64,000 nucleotides of DNA, taken from assembly GCF_030247605.1 (NCBI RefSeq), contig NZ_JAOTSB010000018.1:2463-66462 (forward strand). The letters are read 5' to 3'. The DNA comes from Acidaminobacter sp. (GTDB lineage Bacteria > Bacillota > Clostridia > Peptostreptococcales > Acidaminobacteraceae). Both the position numbers and the translations under genes were made by a program. The notes below the pieces were generated by a model. The model made no database searches. It worked only from the letters and a program-made list of their open reading frames with translations, and was not told the DNA's origin. Shown here piece after piece: positions 4,298 to 62,265 of the stretch (positions are counted from its first letter, which is position 1; each line of letters begins with the position of its first letter).

Positions 4298-6526
4298 TCA
4301 AGTTCTGAGGAATTTTTTCTCAATTTCCTGCCGTTCCATTCGCACCACGAGTGGCCGTCCGTGTGGGCAGGTATAAGGCGATTCAAGGGTTCTGAGCTCT
4401 TTGATCAATTGGGCCGCTTCAAAGGGCGTCAAGGCGTCGTTGGATTTGACAGCGGCCTTACAGGCCATGCTCATCAACCGGTCTTCAATGGGTTTCTGTG
4501 CGGCAGCGCGCAGTTCGTGGGCACTTTCTTTGTCCTTCAGCTGCTCAAAGAACCGCTTGGTACCAGGGACATCAAACAGCATTGGGACCTCTCTTAAGAT
4601 GAAGTCCGTTTCGCCGAAAGGTTCCAGGGTGAAACCAATTTTTTCAAGGGTCTCACTTCTCTCGCCCAGGAGCAGCGCTGTCGCTTGGTCGCATTCAATC
4701 AGAATGGGTTCGACTAAAAGCTGCCTCACGACTTCGCGACGCTCATAGTCGCGTTTCATCTTGGCATAAAGTATTTTTTCATGGGCGGCATGCTGATCTA
4801 TCAAAAGGATATGATTTTCCTTTTCATACATCAGGAAGGATTTGAAGAGCTGGCCAACATAGCGCGCGCTGTCATAAAGCGTCTCAGTGGGGGCCGTTTC
4901 GGTTGGTCTTGCGGCTTCTTCAAGTCCCGCAAATCTTGTCTCCGGGATCACGAGATTTTCGAGCAGCGTCGAGTCGAATCGGATGGGTTCGGAGTGCTTT
5001 GTAAAATCACGCCCGCCATAGCTGCTGCCCGACTCCCGGCTGACATTTGAGGTTTGTGTGACAGGCACATTTTTGGAGTTGGTGCCAGTCACGGAGATGG
5101 CGCTTGGGTCTGTCTCCGGATCTAAGTCGGTGCCCGTCACCGAGTCAGTATGGGTGCCTGTCACCAAATTCGTTTTGGTGTCTGACACTGATTCTGTTTT
5201 GGTGCCTGTCACTGAATTGAGTTTAGTGTCTGACCCCAAAGTGGATTCGGTGCCAGAGCTTGAACTATCTCGCCTTATATTTATGCCATTATATGGTGAT
5301 TCCGTAGGGCTTTTTGGTCTGTTGAACGAATCCAGAGCAGGTACTGGTGCCGATGGTCCCGGTTCGAAGGCCGGTTTCGCCACAAAACTTTTAACGGGAA
5401 CCTGCTGCCGCTGCTCAAGGGCCCGCTTCAACTCAACGGATAAAAAGTTCCGAAGGGCATCTTCCCTCTCGAACTTGATCTCCGTCTTTTGGGGATGAAT
5501 ATTGACATCACAGGCATCAGGCTGGATTTCCAGGTAAAGGAGCACCGCCGGAAACCGGCTTCCCGGAAGCAGTCCCTGATAGGCATATTGAATCGCGTCC
5601 AGCGTCATGCGGCTCTTCACGTAGCGCCCGTTGACAAAGGTCATCTGATAGTTGCGGTTGCCCCGTGTATAGTCAATCTTGGAGGCCCAGCCTGTCACTT
5701 TGACAAGCTCATTTTCAAAGCTGAACTCGAATAAAGAACGTGTCAGCCCACGCTCTAAAGTGGCGTAAGCCGCTGAAAAAACCTTATCATCTCCCGGCGT
5801 CTTGAAGACCAGCCTCTTATCGAGGACGAACTGAAAGGAAATCCCGGGATGGGACAAGGCCAGCTTGGTCATCAAGTCACTGATATAAGCGGCTTCTGAG
5901 GCCGCAGATTTCATAAACTTCAGCCGTGCCGGCGTATTGAAGAAAAGATCTTTGACGACAACGGTCGTACCGTGGGCCGCAGAGGTTGCTCTGCGGTCAG
6001 TCTCCCGGCCGCCGGCCAGGGTCATGTGAAGGCCTTCCTCGTCCTTTTGCCGCCGCGTGGTCAGCTCCAGATACGACACAGCTGCAATGCTGGACAGCGC
6101 TTCACCTCTAAAACCCAAAGTCCTGAGGGACACCAGGTCGTCTATGGAGGCGACTTTGCTGGTAGCGTGGCGTTCAAAAGCCAGGGGCACATCCTCCGGA
6201 TTCATGCCGCAGCCGTTGTCTGTGACGCGAATGTACTTCTTCCCGCCCTGCTCGACCTCGACGACAATACGGGTAGACCCGGCATCAATCGCGTTTTCAA
6301 CCAATTCTTTGATGACCGCCGCAGGGCGTTCGACAACCTCGCCGGCAGCGATTTTATCCGATACTTGAGGTGACAGTCTTTGGATCCGTTTGGGCTCGGG
6401 GAGGGTATGGGCTTCGGTGACCACTGGATGAATCTGTTCTGGTACGGATGAAGTCAAGACATCATCACCTTCATGTCCAGCGAGCTGTTCTTCATTCATT
6501 GATTTGTTTGGTTGGGTCATCCTCAT
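4298..6526 (-). CDS. mutL: DNA mismatch repair protein MutL with an expanded repetitive linker
   Basis: IAAGEVVERPAAVIKELVENAIDAG GHKL ATPase N-terminus and a C-terminal dimerisation/endonuclease domain (DQHAAHEKI). 742 aa, against roughly 615-630 aa for E. coli and B. subtilis MutL. Confidence 0.95.
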   Translation of the reverse strand: MRMTQPNKSMNEEQLAGHEGDDVLTSSVPEQIHPVVTEAHTLPEPKRIQRLSPQVSDKIAAGEVVERPAAVIKELVENAIDAGSTRIVVEVEQGGKKYIRVTDNGCGMNPEDVPLAFERHATSKVASIDDLVSLRTLGFRGEALSSIAAVSYLELTTRRQKDEEGLHMTLAGGRETDRRATSAAHGTTVVVKDLFFNTPARLKFMKSAASEAAYISDLMTKLALSHPGISFQFVLDKRLVFKTPGDDKVFSAAYATLERGLTRSLFEFSFENELVKVTGWASKIDYTRGNRNYQMTFVNGRYVKSRMTLDAIQYAYQGLLPGSRFPAVLLYLEIQPDACDVNIHPQKTEIKFEREDALRNFLSVELKRALEQRQQVPVKSFVAKPAFEPGPSAPVPALDSFNRPKSPTESPYNGINIRRDSSSSGTESTLGSDTKLNSVTGTKTESVSDTKTNLVTGTHTDSVTGTDLDPETDPSAISVTGTNSKNVPVTQTSNVSRESGSSYGGRDFTKHSEPIRFDSTLLENLVIPETRFAGLEEAARPTETAPTETLYDSARYVGQLFKSFLMYEKENHILLIDQHAAHEKILYAKMKRDYERREVVRQLLVEPILIECDQATALLLGERSETLEKIGFTLEPFGETDFILREVPMLFDVPGTKRFFEQLKDKESAHELRAAAQKPIEDRLMSMACKAAVKSNDALTPFEAAQLIKELRTLESPYTCPHGRPLVVRMERQEIEKKFLRT
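5058..5262. repeat. 24-bp phased array (9 units) with core GTGNCNGNCAC, in frame inside the mutL linker
   Basis: Cores start at 5058, 5082, 5106, 5130, 5154, 5178, 5202, 5226 and 5250, exactly 24 bp apart. The first core is GTGACAGGCAC and the last is GTGCCAGAGCT, as in the intergenic arrays. Confidence 0.85.
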
Positions 6527-9189
6527 CTCCCCTTTCCGCTGCTGCCGTTAATTCTTCGCGCCTCATTGATCAGGCGGTCCAGCGCGCCCATAGCCTCAAG
6601 GGGTGTCATTTTCAGCACGTCCAGGGTTGCCATCTCTGACACAAGGTTTTCGGCCTGGCCGGACGTCAGAAAGCTCAGCTGCTGCATCACAGGCGTTGGC
6701 TCAGAAGGCATAACCGGGTCGAGGTCATTTAGCTGCTGAATATTATTATTGATATCATTTTCCTCAAGCTTTTTCAGAATCTGTCTTGCCCGCGTCACCA
6801 CAGCCTCCGGCAGGCCCGCCAGCCGAGCCACCTGAATGCCGAAGCTCTGATTGGCGCCGCCGCGGACGATCTTGCGAAGGAACACAATATCCTCTCCCTG
6901 CTCCCGAACGGCAATGCAGAAGTTCTTGACACCGCTGAACTTCCCTTCCAGCTCCGTCAGCTCGTGATAATGGGTCGCAAACATAGTCTTTGCGCGGATG
7001 CCGCTGCGTCGTGACAGGTGCTCTACCACGGCCCAGGCAATACTGAGGCCGTCATAAGTGCTGGTGCCCCGGCCTATTTCATCCAGCAGAATGAGCGACT
7101 GTGACGTCGCGTGGCGCAGGATGTGGGACAGCTCGATCATCTCCACCATAAAGGTGGATTGGCCCTGTGAGAGGTCATCAGAGGCGCCTACGCGGGTAAA
7201 GATCCGGTCTACCGGGAACAGTGATGCCCGGTGGGCTGGGACGAAGGAGCCAATCTGATACAGCAGCGTAATCAGCGCTACCTGCCGCAGATAGGTCGAC
7301 TTACCGGCCATGTTGGGGCCGGTGATGATGTGAAATTGCTGCTCATCCTGGTCCAGGGACGCATCATTGGGGATGAACGGCACCTTGGGGAACATCTTTT
7401 CGATCACCGGATGTCGTCCGCCTTCAATGGTTAAAGCACCGGGCTCTCCAGTGAGGGGGCGGCAGTAATTCTGCACATAGGCCAGCTCCGCCAGACCCGT
7501 GAGGACATCAATGGAAGCCACTGCATCTGCAGTTCGTTTCAGCCGTGAGACTTCGGCCAGCACTAAAGTACGAATCTCGCTGAACAGCTCATATTCGAGG
7601 CCGGTGATGCGCTCCTCGGCACCCAAAACCTTTTCCTCCAGGGACTTCAGTTCCGGGGTAATATAGCGCTCGGAATTGGCCAAGGTCTGCTTGCGCTGGT
7701 AATCCTCCGGGGCCAGGTGACTGTTGGTGCGGGTGATATCCAGATAATAGCCAAAGACTTTATTGAAGCCCACTTTAAGGGATTTTATGCCGGTACGCTG
7801 ACGTTCGCGGGTCTCCAGATCCAGGATCCACTGCTTCCCGTTTTGGACAATATCCCTCAGTTCAGCCAGGTCGGCGTTGTAATCAGAGCGGATCAAGCCC
7901 CCCTCTTTGACAGAGATGGGCGGCTCGTCCGCGATGGAACGGTCTATTAAATCATAAACGTCTTCAAGAGGATCAATCTCGCCCCTGAGTTGATTGAGCA
8001 GAGTCGCGTCCGCGTCGCTGAGGATGGCCTTGAGGTCCGGCAGAATAGCCAGGGAGGATTTCAGCGCCAGAAGGTCCCTGGCATTGACAGTCCCGAAGAC
8101 CAGCTTCGAAGAAAGTCGTTCCAGGTCGTAAACGGACTTGAGGAGCTCCCGGACCTCACTCCGGAGGATCAGATCGTTGACGAAGAGGTCAACGGTTTCC
8201 AGGCGCTGCTCAATAGCCTCTGTATCCAGCAGTGGCCGTTCGAGCCATTGGCGTAGCCTGCGGCCGCCCATGCTGGTGGCCGTATGGTCCAGAACCCAAA
8301 GGAGTGAACCGCGCTTGCGCTTATCCCTAAGGGTCTCTACAATCTCCAGGTTGCGCCAGGCAAACTTGTCCAGCATCATGAACTGACCGGTCTGATAGAC
8401 CAGGATCTGCTCAAAATGCCGGAGATCCACCTTTTGGGTTTCTTCAATATAAGCCAGCAAGCCGCCCACAGCGCCCAGCTGAGCACTGTCAGGAACGAGG
8501 CCCAGCCCTTCCAGGGACAAAACACTATAAACCCGACGAATCAATGGTGCAGCTTGATTAGGGTCGAAATAAGCATCCGGTACTGTGGTCATAGTGTAGC
8601 CTTCGGCCGTCAAGGTTGACATAATATTATTATGTAAACCGTCAAACCCTTTACTCACAATAATCTCACTTGGCTTAACTTTGAGAATTTCTTCCAGCAC
8701 CCGGTCAACGCCTTTTTCGGGATCAAAAAGGGTTGTCTTCAGCTCGCCCGTCGTAATATCCGCGTAGGCCACAGACCAGGCATTCCTCTCATTCAGCGCC
8801 AGGACGTAGTTATTTTCCCTCTCATCCAAAAAGGCCGGATCAATGACCGTACCCGGCGTCAGGATCCGCACCACTTCACGCTTGACCAGCCCCTTGGCGA
8901 GGGCCGGATCCTCCACCTGCTCGCAGATGGCAACTTTGTAGCCCTTTTCCACCAGTCTTGAGAGGTACACATCCGCCGCATGATAAGGGACGCCGCATAG
9001 CGGCGCCCGTTCCTCCAGACCGCAGTTGCGGCCGGTCAGCGTCAATTCCAGCTCCCTGGAAGCGGTGACAGCGTCATCAAAAAACATCTCATAAAAGTCG
9101 CCGAGCCTATAAAACAGGATATAGTCCTGATAGCTGTTCTTAATCTCAAAATACTGCCGCATCATGGGCGTCAACTTGTCGTAGTCCAC
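6523..9189 (-). CDS. mutS: DNA mismatch repair protein MutS
   Basis: 888 aa; MMRQYFEIK N-terminus and Walker A GPNMAGKST. Confidence 0.97.
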   Translation of the reverse strand: MDYDKLTPMMRQYFEIKNSYQDYILFYRLGDFYEMFFDDAVTASRELELTLTGRNCGLEERAPLCGVPYHAADVYLSRLVEKGYKVAICEQVEDPALAKGLVKREVVRILTPGTVIDPAFLDERENNYVLALNERNAWSVAYADITTGELKTTLFDPEKGVDRVLEEILKVKPSEIIVSKGFDGLHNNIMSTLTAEGYTMTTVPDAYFDPNQAAPLIRRVYSVLSLEGLGLVPDSAQLGAVGGLLAYIEETQKVDLRHFEQILVYQTGQFMMLDKFAWRNLEIVETLRDKRKRGSLLWVLDHTATSMGGRRLRQWLERPLLDTEAIEQRLETVDLFVNDLILRSEVRELLKSVYDLERLSSKLVFGTVNARDLLALKSSLAILPDLKAILSDADATLLNQLRGEIDPLEDVYDLIDRSIADEPPISVKEGGLIRSDYNADLAELRDIVQNGKQWILDLETRERQRTGIKSLKVGFNKVFGYYLDITRTNSHLAPEDYQRKQTLANSERYITPELKSLEEKVLGAEERITGLEYELFSEIRTLVLAEVSRLKRTADAVASIDVLTGLAELAYVQNYCRPLTGEPGALTIEGGRHPVIEKMFPKVPFIPNDASLDQDEQQFHIITGPNMAGKSTYLRQVALITLLYQIGSFVPAHRASLFPVDRIFTRVGASDDLSQGQSTFMVEMIELSHILRHATSQSLILLDEIGRGTSTYDGLSIAWAVVEHLSRRSGIRAKTMFATHYHELTELEGKFSGVKNFCIAVREQGEDIVFLRKIVRGGANQSFGIQVARLAGLPEAVVTRARQILKKLEENDINNNIQQLNDLDPVMPSEPTPVMQQLSFLTSGQAENLVSEMATLDVLKMTPLEAMGALDRLINEARRINGSSGKGR

Positions 9190-21415: not shown

Positions 21416-21575
21416 GTGACAGGCGCCAGTTTGAAGTGAGTGTCTGACACTGAGTTGAAGTGAGTGTCTGACACTGAGTTGAAGTGAGTGTCTGACACTG
21501 AGTTGAAGTGAGTGTCTGACACTGAAATCGTTTCGGTGCCAGAGCTTGCGAGAATGTTTCTCAATAAATGTCGTT
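21416..21575. repeat. 24-bp phased array (6 units) plus conserved tail
   Basis: Cores at 21416 (GTGACAGGCGC), at 21440, 21464, 21488 and 21512 (GTGTCTGACAC, four identical 24-bp units) and at 21536 (GTGCCAGAGCT). Tail is TGCGAGAATGTTTCTCAATAAATG. Confidence 0.9.
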
Positions 21576-22299: not shown

Positions 22300-22982
22300 A
22301 GTGTTTCGTCCCTTTCGTAGGGGATGGTAACGTCATCCTCTTCGGACAAAGCGCTCTGTTCAGCTGCAGTCGTTTCTGAAACCGATCCGTCCGACCCATC
22401 CAACCCATCCGAACCATCCGTTTCATCCGCTTCACGGGCCTCAAGCAGGTTGATCAGACGCTCGGCGCCGTCAAAGGTCGTGAGATCCGGAAGCTCTTCC
22501 AGGGACCTCAGACCAAAAGTTCTGAGAAACTCGTCCGTCGTGCCGTAAAGCATCGGTCGGCCAATCTTCTCCAGCCTGCCCTTTTCTTCAATAAGCCCGC
22601 GCTCGATCAAAATCTGCAGGGGCTTGTCCGACTTGACGCCCCGGGTGTAATCGATCTCCGACCGGGTCACAGGCTGTTTGTAGGCGATAATGGCGAGTGT
22701 CTCCAGCGTCGCCGGGGACAAGCCTCTGGATTTAGTGGTCTTCATGACGCGCTCGATAAAGTCTGCATTTTCCGGTGCGCTGGCCATCTGAACGGCGTCG
22801 CGGATGAACAGCAGGCGCATCCCCCGCTCCCCGGACTCGTATTCCTTGCGCAGGGTTTCCAGCAGTTCCACGGTCCAGCTCATGGGTAGATCCAGGGCTG
22901 CCGCCAGCCGGTCGATTGCCACAGGCTCGCCGCTGACAAACAGAATGGATTCTATGGCGCTTCGGTAGGAACGTTCTTCCAT
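22296..22982 (-). CDS. scpB: Segregation and condensation protein B
   Basis: SAIESILFVSGEPV N-terminus and the LETLAIIAYKQPVTRSEID winged helix; repetitive acidic DGSDG tail. Confidence 0.9.
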   Translation of the reverse strand: MEERSYRSAIESILFVSGEPVAIDRLAAALDLPMSWTVELLETLRKEYESGERGMRLLFIRDAVQMASAPENADFIERVMKTTKSRGLSPATLETLAIIAYKQPVTRSEIDYTRGVKSDKPLQILIERGLIEEKGRLEKIGRPMLYGTTDEFLRTFGLRSLEELPDLTTFDGAERLINLLEAREADETDGSDGLDGSDGSVSETTAAEQSALSEEDDVTIPYERDETL

Positions 22983-25099
22983 CAGTCGGTCTCCCCTTCT
23001 TCATCGTAGTGGTCTTCTTTGTGGTTTTTGTTTTGGTTATCGCCGCGGGCTTGTGGGTTTTGGACCTGGGAACCATCGGCAGCGGTATTGGTGTCTTGGG
23101 ACTGAGACGTCTCATACCAGTGCTCCAGCAGGGACTCCTGAATCAATTCCTCTTCAGTTTCCGATGGTTCCCTGCGCCGAATCAGGATGCCGCTGAACAT
23201 CTCGTCCTGAACCACACGAACGCGCTTCAGCTTCAAAAGCTCAAGAAGGGCCAGAAACGTGGTTACAACGACGTTGCGGGTTGCGCCGCCCTCGAACAGG
23301 GCTTCAAAGGAAATGTCGTTCACTTCCTTGAGGCGGGCCGTCAGCGCCTTGATGGCGTCCTCCACGGCGTAGGGCTCACGGTTCAGGGTAGAGAAAAAAT
23401 GCTCTCTGTGGGTATCGGTGCGATCCAGTTTGGTGAGCACCCGTTTTAGGGCTTCTGTGAGAAGGTCAATCTCGGTAGGCTCGTTGAGGGTTTCCGGATT
23501 CTGAGGGAGGATTTCAGAGAGATCTGAGGCCTCCCGAGTGAAATAAGCGCCGTCCTGCAGCTCGAGGCCACTGAGGAGCCTTGCGGCTTCCTTGTAGCGC
23601 TTGTACTCGACGAGTTTGGTGACGAGCTCCGTACGCGGGTCCTCGGCCACATCCCAGGCTTCGAAAATGCCCGCTTCACGGTCCGGCAGCAGCATCATGG
23701 ACTTGATCTCAAGGAGCGTGGCGGCCATGACCAGGAATTCGCCGGCAATGTCGACGCGTGCCGTTTCCATATGGATCAGGTAGTCGAGGTACTGGGTGCA
23801 GAGGGTGGCCACAGGGATATCGTAGATATCGATTTCGTTGTCCTGGATCAGGTGGAGCAGGAGGTCCATAGGGCCTTCGAAGGCATCCAGCTTGACGGAG
23901 TAGGCGGCATTGCCGGATGGGGATGGTGAATGGGATTCGGGTTGGGTTGGGTGATCATCGGCATCTGGTTGGTCTTTTGGGGGTGTTGCAAGTTCGGGTT
24001 TATGTGGAAGGACCTCGTGGAGGTTCAGTTGCTGGGCCAGGGCGTCTGGGGACGTGGTGTTCAGTGCGCGGGCCGCATTTTTGAGTTTGCGGGGCAGCGA
24101 GCACTGTCGGAAGCGCTCTGCGAAGTCCGGGGAGGTTTGGGAAAAATAACCGAACAGGTGACTCGCCTTGTCGTCACCGCAGAGACCGGGGGCGTGCTCG
24201 ACGACCCGGGCAAAGGCTATGGCCTGGATCAGGGCCTCAGAGGTTGGTGCTGTGTTGTCCTCTGTTGTGATCAGAAGACCTAGGTCGAGCATCAAGCGAA
24301 CAGCCTCTTCGCAGTGGCCGTCACTGAAGTTGAGGAACAGCTCGCGCATAATGCGGTCATTGGTCAGGGTTTTCAGTACACCCGCTTCTATGGCTTCTTT
24401 CATTTGTTTTTCTGTTGTGTCCACCGGGGTCAGACCTACTCGGGCCATGTAGCGGACCGCGCGGTACAGACGGGTGGGATCGTCGTAAAAGCTCTGGTCA
24501 TGAAGGACTCTAAGGGCTTGGGCTTTCAAGTCGTCGAGGCCTTTTAGGGGATCCAGCAGCTGGATCAGGATCGTGCGGGTGGTGCTTAAGTCGCATGTTT
24601 CAGGGTCCACATAGTCCAGGAGTTCCAGCTCGAGGGCCATGGCATTGACGGTGAAGTCCCGGCGTTTCAGGTCGTCCTCAATGGTGCCCGGCGTGACTGT
24701 GGGAAGCTGGCCAGGAGCTTCATAGCGTTCGCTGCGGGCGGTGATCAGATCGATCTCCCCTGTGTCCAGGATGCCTGAGGCGGTCATGAAGCGGTCGTAG
24801 TACTGCCAGTCAATGTTAGTGAGGCGGTCGGTTAGTTTGGTGATCTCGCCTTCTATCACCACGTCCAGGTCGCGGACGTCGCTGCCTAGAATCAGGTCAC
24901 GGACAGCACCGCCGACGAGGAAGACTCTGAGGGTGGCGTTTGGAGTTTCGGATTTATAATCTTCAGCTGCGAGCAGAAGCTGGGTCAAAATGCCGTCGTG
25001 GGCGCGATTCAGTGCGTTGACCCTGTCTTCAAGGTGCGCAATGAGTTCTTCCAGCGGCAGTGCCAGCAGCGATTGAGTTTGAGTGATTAGGTCGGTCAC
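22982..25099 (-). CDS. scpA: Fusion protein: CCA-adding/poly(A) polymerase family nucleotidyltransferase (N-terminal about 390 aa) + ScpA kleisin (C-terminal about 300 aa)
   Basis: N-terminal part has LVGGAVRDLILG..VRDLDV, RSERY, DLKRRDFTVNAMA and FYDDPTRLYRAVRY. After a P/Q/D/S-rich linker comes YSVKLDAFEGPMDLLLHLIQDNEIDIYDIPV (ScpA N-terminus). Single 705-codon frame, ending where scpB starts. Confidence 0.8.
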   Translation of the reverse strand: MTDLITQTQSLLALPLEELIAHLEDRVNALNRAHDGILTQLLLAAEDYKSETPNATLRVFLVGGAVRDLILGSDVRDLDVVIEGEITKLTDRLTNIDWQYYDRFMTASGILDTGEIDLITARSERYEAPGQLPTVTPGTIEDDLKRRDFTVNAMALELELLDYVDPETCDLSTTRTILIQLLDPLKGLDDLKAQALRVLHDQSFYDDPTRLYRAVRYMARVGLTPVDTTEKQMKEAIEAGVLKTLTNDRIMRELFLNFSDGHCEEAVRLMLDLGLLITTEDNTAPTSEALIQAIAFARVVEHAPGLCGDDKASHLFGYFSQTSPDFAERFRQCSLPRKLKNAARALNTTSPDALAQQLNLHEVLPHKPELATPPKDQPDADDHPTQPESHSPSPSGNAAYSVKLDAFEGPMDLLLHLIQDNEIDIYDIPVATLCTQYLDYLIHMETARVDIAGEFLVMAATLLEIKSMMLLPDREAGIFEAWDVAEDPRTELVTKLVEYKRYKEAARLLSGLELQDGAYFTREASDLSEILPQNPETLNEPTEIDLLTEALKRVLTKLDRTDTHREHFFSTLNREPYAVEDAIKALTARLKEVNDISFEALFEGGATRNVVVTTFLALLELLKLKRVRVVQDEMFSGILIRRREPSETEEELIQESLLEHWYETSQSQDTNTAADGSQVQNPQARGDNQNKNHKEDHYDEEGETD

Positions 25100-27354: not shown

Positions 27355-27435
27355 GTGACGTGGACAACTTCAGAGTTGGTGACTCGGACAACTTTCAATC
27401 CGGTGCCAGAGCATGCGTGAATAGTTCTCAATTAG
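27355..27435. repeat. 24-bp phased array (3 units) plus conserved tail, upstream of the sensor kinase
   Basis: Cores at 27355 (GTGACGTGGAC), 27379 (GTGACTCGGAC) and 27403 (GTGCCAGAGCA). The tail TGCGTGAATAGTTCTCAATTA matches the tail at 21547. Confidence 0.8.
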
Positions 27436-30898: not shown

Positions 30899-31040
30899 GT
30901 GACAGTCACCAAAGTTGAGTGAGTGACAGTCACCGAAGTAGAGTGAGTGTCAGACACCGAAGTAGAGTGAGTGTCAGACACCAACCCAAAACTAGTGCCA
31001 GAGCTTCACACAATTCTCGAACAATTTATTGGTGAGTCAT
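30899..31040. repeat. 24-bp phased array (5 units) plus tail, immediately after the response regulator gene
   Basis: Cores at 30899 and 30923 (GTGACAGTCAC), at 30947 and 30971 (GTGTCAGACAC) and at 30995 (GTGCCAGAGCT). Confidence 0.88.
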
Positions 31041-50799: not shown

Positions 50800-50906
50800 G
50801 TGACGCGGACAGAATTTGATTTAGTGCCAGTCACTGAGTTGAGGTTGGTGTCTGACACTCAGTCAAGTTTGGTGTCTGACACTCAGTCAAGCTTGGTGTC
50901 AGGCAC
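50800..50906. repeat. 24-bp phased array (5 units), degenerate terminal unit
   Basis: Cores at 50800 (GTGACGCGGAC), 50824 (GTGCCAGTCAC), 50848 and 50872 (GTGTCTGACAC) and 50896 (GTGTCAGGCAC). Confidence 0.85.
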
Positions 50907-50961
50907 TCACTACAATTCAGACACAATTCGTGAGGCATTCCCGGTCCACCGAATCAAAAAA

Positions 50962-51454: not shown

Positions 51455-51630
51455 AACCTCATCCCCAAACTAGAAAATGATCAGCCGGTTACGCCACTGG
51501 ATCCCTGCAGCCAAAGCGTCCAAATGCAGCTGCAGCTCAACTCCTCTGATGGCCTATTAATACCCAGAATGGCTGCGCGGAAAACAATCAATTGAGAATA
51601 ATTATCGATTGAAAAAGATTTTAAAACATA

Positions 51631-51660: not shown

Positions 51661-51670
51661 GTTATGTAAA

Positions 51671-51720
51671 TGTGAAACTTGGTGTCATGTGAAACTTGGT
51701 GTCAGACACCCAGTTTCACA
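51671..51720. repeat. 17-bp tandem duplication ending in a 16-bp-stem hairpin centred on GTGTCAGACAC
   Basis: TGTGAAACTTGGTGTCA x2, then GACACCCAGTTTCACA, about 150 nt upstream of the MFS gene. Confidence 0.8.
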
Positions 51721-51871
51721 TCCATCCCCGCCCATCCAACAACACTCTCGAACTTTGACCCCTAGATATGCTATACTGACCCTAAGCCAAAATCGGCCTG
51801 AGCCCGGCCCATTAAACCCATGACCGGCAATCAATCCCCAACCCCACAACGACATTTTTCAGGAGCGCAAG

Positions 51872-62075: not shown

Positions 62076-62265
62076 CCGGTTATTGCCTATGAGTCATCAC
62101 AAAAACAGCGGTGATCCCATAGACACGTCAGACTCTTTCTTTCCAAAACGGGAGGCTGTGGGATTTCTCCCCTAACCCAGGTTGGTGACCATAGCAAAAA
62201 GTAAGCCGTAGGTCATTCAACTCGAAATGAGCGCGATATTCAGTTGGCAGTTTTGACATGTCTAG

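Follow-up and report, generated by a model that had tools for sequence, protein, structure and literature searches.

We found that the mismatch-repair gene mutL of an Acidaminobacter sp. carries, within the sequence coding for its interdomain linker, a tandem array of 24-nt units that is translated in frame and that, judged from its sequence, belongs to a family of interspersed repeats located for the most part between genes. The DNA analysed, hereafter the window, is a 64-kb stretch of contig NZ_JAOTSB010000018.1. In our view it is highly probable that a clade-specific interspersed repeat was captured in the disordered linker of MutL, where it is tolerated and evolves as a coding variable-number tandem repeat (VNTR) without a dedicated function. 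The placement of the array in MutL, its kinship with the intergenic arrays, its variation among related mutL alleles and the recurrence of the same element in other proteins are presented below.

An in-frame repeat array in the MutL linker

The host gene occupies 4298-6526 on the minus strand, encodes a 742-aa open reading frame (ORF) whose product is identical to Acidaminobacter sp. WP_300688192.1, and lies in the usual gene order mutS-mutL-miaA-hfq. HATPase_c_3, DNA_mis_repair and MutL_C all scored above the Pfam cut-offs, with the GHKL ATPase and DNA_mis_repair regions extending to aa 370 and MutL_C, the dimerisation/endonuclease domain, covering aa 557-699. The array corresponds to aa 422-489 (68 aa), and thus lies inside the interdomain linker, which by Pfam runs from aa 370 to aa 557.

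On the DNA, the array covers 5057-5260 of the minus strand and comprises a leading half-unit and eight full 24-nt units, all in frame. Read from 5260 to 5057, it is translated as SSGT ESTLGSDT KLNSVTGT KTESVSDT KTNLVTGT HTDSVTGT DLDPETDP SAISVTGT NSKNVPVT. Each unit consists of a 12-nt spacer followed by a 12-nt core of type GTGNCNGNCACC. Eight GTGNCNGNCAC cores (at most one mismatch) follow one another at intervals of exactly 24 nt between 5058 and 5236, and the closing core GTGCCAGAGC, at 5250, is in phase with them. Across the window, the GGTGNCNGNCAC pattern occurs 16 times against 0.46 expected. Tandem Repeats Finder reported only 3.7 copies at 73% identity for the mutL array, because its units have diverged.

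Three parts of the element can be distinguished on the minus strand. A left-module remnant, GAGATAGTTCA on the coding strand (5261-5271), is translated within RRDSS and resembles the TTCAGAATAGTCTCA-AGCTCTGGCACC subtype of loci L112, L155 and L150. The left terminal half-unit AGCTCTGGCACC (5249-5260), which encodes SSGT, equals the plus-strand closing core GTGCCAGAGC. The eight full units of 24 nt each follow at 5057-5248, the last of them with an inverted core, GTGCCTGTCAC, at 5058-5068.

The initial annotation of this region had described an in-frame 24-bp array in the MutL linker, and the sequence, the 24-nt phasing and the Pfam borders all bear this out. Its count of nine units becomes eight full units plus the leading half-unit, and the eight peptides that it listed are the same residues in a shifted register. 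It had also judged MutL to be about 110 aa longer than the Escherichia coli and Bacillus subtilis proteins; the excess is about 115-125 aa, and only 68 aa of it are array, with a further ~45 aa forming an N-terminal extension. The array-less MutL of A. hydrogenoformans is already 700 aa long.

As a separate observation on this protein, the endonuclease motif DQHA(X)2E(X)4E at about aa 577-588 (IDQHAAHEKILYAKM) has its last Glu replaced by Ala throughout the clade (YAKM/YARM, P0001-P0014). More distant relatives (P0015, P0016) have YE at the motif, and CPHGRP is present in the window MutL.

The mutL array shares its DNA with intergenic arrays

Four copies of the 10-mer GTGCCAGAGC are present in the window, where 0.11 would be expected. 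All lie exactly 24 nt past the final core of an array, and the closing core in mutL is among them. Just outside this end core, the mutL sequence reads GAGATAGTTCA-AGCTCTGGCACCGAAT, which matches the flanking-module subtype TTCAGAATAGTCTCA-AGCTCTGGCACCGAAT of L112 and L155. The likeness at the DNA level covers spacer and core together, as seen when the mutL unit AAACTCAATTCAGTGACAGGCACC is set against the intergenic unit AACCTCAACTCAGTGACTGGCACT. Translated in the MutL frame, intergenic units yield NLNSVTGT, NSNSVTGT, QLNSVSDT and HSTLVSDT; comparable MutL units are KLNSVTGT, NSNPVTDT, ELNPVTGT and KSTLVSDT.

Moreover, the core codons in mutL are dictated by the DNA core and not by the preference of the genome. 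Val is encoded by GTG in 27 of 28 cases in the array, compared with 30% genome-wide; the corresponding values are 10 of 11 versus 16% for Gly as GGG, 16 of 21 versus 17% for Thr as ACA, and 14 of 14 versus 12% for Ser as TCA. Because the end core, the flank remnant, the spacer-plus-core units and the core codons all agree, we place the mutL and intergenic arrays, on these sequence grounds, in one DNA family. Such a combination is not expected of an independently evolved peptide repeat, and the initial annotation was right to prefer common family membership over a low-complexity linker of separate origin. Its further statement that mutL and the intergenic arrays have both terminal cores in common applies to the closing core GTGCCAGAGC and not to the opening core: GTGACAGGCAC recurs in only one of them (at 21416, with one mismatch), and the remaining intergenic arrays in the window end in the type-2 unit TGTCCGCGTCACC or in nothing.

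Architecture and distribution of the repeat family

Members of the family begin with a left module and the half-unit AGCTCTGGCACC, followed by 24-bp units in variable number and by an end unit (GGCGCCTGTCACC or TGTCCGCGTCACC). The unit contains an 11-bp palindromic core, GTGNCNGNCAC, and exists in two types, type 1 with core GTGTCAGACAC and type 2 with core TGTCCGCGTCACC. The left modules fall into several subtypes, each of which is a short inverted or direct repeat. The two ends of the element have a weak inverted relation only (GGCAC...GTGCC; GTGACAGGCAC versus GTGCCTGTCAC).

Five copies are present in the window, the mutL array and four intergenic ones, all on one strand. Site A (21416-21565, minus strand), between rluB and an acetyltransferase gene, consists of the left module TTGAGAAACATTCTCGCA, AGCTCTGGCACC, four identical type-1 units and the end unit GGCGCCTGTCACC. 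The intergenic site B (27355-27433, minus strand) has a left module, TGCTCTGGCACC and two type-2 units, TGTCCGAGTCACC and TGTCCACGTCACA. Site C (30899-31024, minus strand) lies between convergent genes, adjoining a terminator, and has a left module, AGCTCTGGCACT and four type-1 units. The last intergenic copy (50800-50935, minus strand), between a terminator and the next promoter, has a AATTGTGT-type left module, four type-1 units and one type-2 end unit.

In two related strains (L115, L116), the orthologues of sites A, B and C keep the left module and AGCTCTGGCACC and differ in the number and type of units. The left modules of intergenic copies are also better conserved than the adjacent spacer DNA. 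In A. hydrogenoformans the element is absent from sites A and B, the two covered by its locus, and 44 kb of its genome gave no family signature. The A. hydrogenoformans orthologue of site A (L117, 13570-13680) holds a different long inverted repeat, GGGGACAGGGACGGACC ... GGTCCGTCCCTGTCCC, which suggests that another repeat family occupies this place.

When public metagenomes were scanned for the end core joined to one unit, 101 loci were recovered, 66 of them with at least two phased units; these 66 came nearly all from a few related samples, and one 265-kb contig held six strict-pattern matches. Literature searches with the core sequences returned unrelated primers only, and those on Acidaminobacter repeats found no description of the family. 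The family is apparently undescribed, and abundant, with at least 66 loci, in an uncultured Clostridia lineage.

Unrelated genomes were found to have multi-copy arrays of their own, with a similar core and the same 24-bp spacing. Achromobacter (L017, L036, L041, L073, L074) has tandem arrays of GGTGTCTGACACC and, in addition, a single inverted copy, the rumen Lachnospiraceae RUG781 (L012, L022, L046, L057, L105 and others) has GGTGCCTGTCACTTTT in direct and inverted order, and a Clostridiales metagenome-assembled genome (MAG; L102) likewise has its own arrays at this spacing. The recurrence is partly due to the design of the search pattern; the presence of several loci per genome marks these as real families.

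Intergenic copies of the Acidaminobacter family do not obey a strict orientation rule, which we rejected on 48 copies: the downstream gene points the same way as the element in 30 and the opposite way in 18, and the flanking genes are arranged +/+ in 16 cases, -/+ in 14, -/- in 11 and +/- in 7. A sigma-70 scan revealed no enrichment at the arrays, and its lone promoter-like match adjoins the start codon of the downstream gene, outside the element. A sigma-54 promoter at the left end (TGGCAC-N5-TTGC) was considered and rejected, since the GC at -12 varies between copies. The only terminator-like match near the arrays was the bidirectional terminator beside site C. Rfam models gave no overlap with the arrays at gathering thresholds and only chance microRNA matches at permissive E-values. 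Arrays do fold more stably than shuffled sequence (z = -3.6 to -5), because the palindromic cores of different units pair together.

Variation of the array among mutL alleles

A protein search identified close MutL relatives of 740, 732, 724, 721 and 718 aa, and we compared the DNA of seven related mutL alleles with 84-94% protein identity. In all seven, the site of the array and its end cores are the same, the full units number five to eight in proteins of 718-740 aa, and the left half-unit is kept as AGC/AAC/ATC-TCTGGCACC. The array lengths differ by whole 8-codon units only, as the initial annotation had anticipated for the linker, and the DNA cores are kept in every allele. The same lengths recur in independent assemblies, with five 718-aa members in one cluster and 732 aa in several proteins, and the length differences are therefore not assembly noise.

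Neither the A. hydrogenoformans MutL (78% identity) nor more distant MutLs carry the array; their linkers are non-repetitive and of similar length, so that the array is specific to one clade. Divergence at 4-fold sites between array-bearing alleles is 0.21-0.53, and the array predates the divergence of the alleles compared.

All alleles, nine or more in number, are intact full-length ORFs, those compared lie in a conserved mutS-mutL-miaA-hfq neighbourhood, and a change of 24 nt is a change of eight codons, which keeps every variant in frame. Phase variation of MutL, which the initial annotation had raised as a possibility, is therefore excluded. Nor was any rearrangement of the locus seen of the sort that recombination between arrays, also envisaged there, might produce.

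In-frame copies in other genes

Three further proteins contain the element in translated form. In CbiG of a related species, SGT followed by (EFxLVSDT)n lies within CbiG_C and splits this domain at profile position ~100 of 117; relatives have zero to nine units and proteins of 330-418 aa. A B12-binding radical SAM protein contains, in two strains, an entire left module plus four units (WCKFTLSSGTEFKLVTGT...), inserted between the B12-binding domain (aa 31-131) and the Radical_SAM domain (aa 248-403). AroB, again in two strains, has three or four units on the opposite strand (ECLTPTS...). Full Pfam domains are present on both sides of the array in four of four host proteins (MutL, CbiG, radical SAM and AroB). 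The MutL and radical SAM arrays lie between Pfam domains; the CbiG array lies within one.

The MutL, CbiG and radical SAM arrays are read in the same frame and begin with the same SGT. Among 62 non-coding arrays, this MutL frame is stop-free in 38, compared with 7 to 32 for each of the other five frames. A phmmer search of 1.84 billion representative proteins with the 68-aa array peptide yielded only unrelated proteins with 8-residue repeats and no further host genes. Immediately before the radical SAM array (L151, ~8080-8120; L181) stands a (GD)n dipeptide repeat, GDGDGDGDGDGDG, which places two different repeats side by side in this linker.

Other sequence features of the window

An 11-mer, TGCCGATGGTC, has a copy in mutL at 5348-5358 on the plus strand. 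The initial annotation had correctly placed this copy near the array; the motif is over-represented genome-wide and independent of the array. The window holds 19 exact copies and 36 with at most one mismatch, against ~1.3 expected, without strand bias and with about half of them intragenic; examples are at 2927, 5348, 14095, 19963, 53095/53114, 57409/57435 and 62363/62392. Intergenic copies often occur in inverted pairs that form terminator-like hairpins (CTGCCGATGGTC...ACCATCGGCAG), and some of the coding copies recur at the orthologous sites of A. hydrogenoformans. We rejected an association between TGCCGATGGTC and the arrays on account of its genome-wide occurrence, its orthologous coding sites and its terminator hairpins; its occasional closeness to the arrays fits a shared intergenic location. 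The distribution of the motif resembles that of DNA uptake sequences or of a REP-like terminator motif.

The stretch 51670-51722 contains two tandem copies of a 17-bp sequence, ATGTGAAACTTGGTGTC, that lead into a long palindrome with one GTGTCAGACAC core at its centre (ATGTGAAACTTGGTGTC-A-GACACCCAGTTTCACAT). This structure lies in a divergent region adjoining a c-di-GMP-II riboswitch; it could represent an operator or, alternatively, a solitary relative of the family. The riboswitch itself (51474-51556, minus strand) and a molybdenum cofactor (Moco) riboswitch at 62119-62241, also on the minus strand, both exceeded the Rfam gathering score. At 22982-25099 on the minus strand, a 705-aa protein fuses PolyA_pol, of the tRNA nucleotidyltransferase type, to ScpA (PF01743 + PF02616). 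The fusion gene precedes scpB, and the fusion is conserved in Acidaminobacter relatives, A. hydrogenoformans among them.

Discussion

We propose that the element entered the linker-coding DNA of mutL once, in the ancestor of an Acidaminobacter sub-clade. The copy stands in the frame that is most often stop-free, and its 8-codon unit can be seen from the sequence to be read through as (x4-V/G-T/S/P-G/D/V-T)n. In E. coli MutL, shortening the linker from 100 to 60 residues caused no mutator phenotype, and roadblock bypass was lost in vitro (PMC6902014). The array would be tolerated as part of a linker that published work on MutL portrays as a flexible tether of non-conserved sequence, and it probably survived because its frame was open and the linker is such a disordered tether. 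Thereafter, units would have been gained, lost and diverged through slippage or unequal exchange, by which the linker has been altered in 8-residue steps only. Most likely, mismatch repair makes no dedicated use of the array, and the array is unable to switch MutL on or off.

Several points weigh against this proposal. Reconstruction of an empty site at mutL was unsuccessful, as the linkers of the nearest array-less MutLs could not be aligned, and no target duplication was recovered; we infer the "insertion" into mutL from family membership and have not seen it directly. We identified no transposase, nor any other function that could mobilise the family. All data come from metagenome assemblies. 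Finally, between mutL alleles, changes are rarer at the synonymous core positions 15, 18 and 21 than at other third positions, which simple neutral decay does not predict. Over all allele pairings, 39 of 339 core synonymous positions were changed, compared with 184 of 565 other third positions, and Fisher tests on three sets of independent pairs gave p = 0.2, 0.006 and 3e-5. These slow cores could reflect gene conversion from other copies, comparison of non-orthologous units, or constraint at the DNA or RNA level.

The last of these possibilities leads to the strongest alternative, namely that the array has been co-opted: its cores would be functional DNA or RNA sites, as a binding array or structured mRNA, or the steps in linker length would tune MutL activity and the mutation rate. 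Besides the slow core positions, this is favoured by the retention of the array in every allele of the clade despite their divergence at 4-fold sites, by the conservation of the intergenic left modules relative to neighbouring spacer DNA, by the folding of the arrays and by the influence of linker length on roadblock bypass by MutL in vitro (PMC6902014). On the other side, unit position 14 changes freely in mutL (GTG to GGG, replacing T14) with no compensating change at A22, and therefore the palindrome as such is not maintained there. Intergenic copies have no consistent position or orientation relative to genes and no promoter-like signal, and the reduced core divergence could stem from gene conversion or non-orthologous unit comparison. 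We regard co-option as unlikely, though less so than the other alternatives.

The reverse direction of transfer, in which a coding repeat, whether of mutL or of some other gene, gave rise to the family and left the intergenic arrays as dispersed or decayed copies, is consistent with the MutL frame being open in 61% of non-coding arrays, and the direction itself was not observed. Yet the intergenic copies are far more numerous and more regular, with more perfect cores and units that are up to 100% identical. They hold complete, conserved left modules of several subtypes, of which mutL has only a remnant, and many of them contain stop codons in the MutL frame. These features make an origin in mutL or another gene very improbable.

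Still less credible is an independent low-complexity coding repeat in MutL whose likeness to the family is coincidental or convergent. Low complexity is common in MutL linkers, and unrelated proteins with 8-residue VTGT- or SGTG-type repeats do exist; this explanation is nevertheless effectively refuted by an end core that is not itself repeated and is shared in phase, by the similar flank remnant and spacers, by a codon usage set by the DNA core, and by the same element, in the same frame and with the same SGT start, in CbiG and the radical SAM protein. That the copy-number differences are artefacts of short-read metagenome assembly can be dismissed almost outright: a scaffold gap does break one intergenic array in a related MAG (L103), but the mutL units are diverged enough (73% identity) to assemble uniquely, the alleles differ in unit sequence as well as number, and identical lengths occur in independent assemblies.

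Capture of a tolerated repeat, our preferred explanation, has parallels in other bacteria. The BOX elements of Streptococcus pneumoniae are composed as boxA-(boxB)n-boxC, with a boxB number that varies between strains (PMC3049150). Both BOX and the Acidaminobacter family are small interspersed composites in which terminal modules surround variable tandem units, with copy variation at individual loci; both are open in some frames, sometimes extend or enter coding sequence, and are predicted to fold when transcribed (PMC3049150). The likeness is an analogy in architecture, since boxB measures 45 bp, in contrast to a 24-bp unit with an 11-bp palindromic core, and the Acidaminobacter family has several left-module subtypes, two unit types and an uncultured Clostridia genus as its host. 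By this analogy, the family can be described as a small composite interspersed repeat with BOX as its best-described analogue.

In-frame insertion of repeats was first described for the Rickettsia palindromic elements (RPEs) and later noted for BOX, ERIC and BRE (PMC3184786, PMC10969869, PMC3110155). RPEs likewise form an intergenic family that is also found in frame in unrelated housekeeping genes, where it is translated at positions that are likely tolerated and leaves the protein intact (PMC10969869). They differ in being single elements of ~100-150 bp, whereas the Acidaminobacter insert is a tandem array that changes in 8-residue steps and whose structural compatibility with its hosts is judged from Pfam borders alone. 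Mycobacterial MIRUs are interspersed intergenic VNTRs whose copy number varies between strains. BRE of Betaproteobacteria are also interspersed intergenic tandem repeats with strain-variable copies, some of them wholly within coding sequences (PMC3110155). Both MIRU and BRE differ from the Acidaminobacter family in having units of ~40-100 bp, no sequence relation and no defined end modules.

Simple-sequence contingency loci, which are phase-variable genes and include mutator switches, resemble the mutL array in being coding tandem repeats whose copy number differs between strains; their units are not a multiple of three and switch the reading frame, whereas the 24-nt unit of mutL cannot cause a frameshift. 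We rejected a CRISPR array, since the 13-nt segments between cores are themselves repeated, in units up to 100% identical; among the genes listed for the loci that protein look-up retrieved, we noted no cas context. With regard to REP-type elements, the cores are palindromic, and a GTAG/CGTC tag was not noticed in the copies listed, with no systematic search made for it.

Taken together, the family offers a case in which non-coding repeat DNA has been turned into protein in four housekeeping genes, among which mutL acts in DNA repair. In mutL, the array provides a natural experiment on how far the linker tolerates changes in length and sequence, and it is usable as a VNTR-style marker for strain typing. 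It also calls for caution in annotation, as a repeat within mutL need not signify a mutator switch. If the array were co-opted after all, the MutL linker would double as a nucleic-acid array, or mismatch-repair efficiency would differ stepwise between strains of Acidaminobacter.

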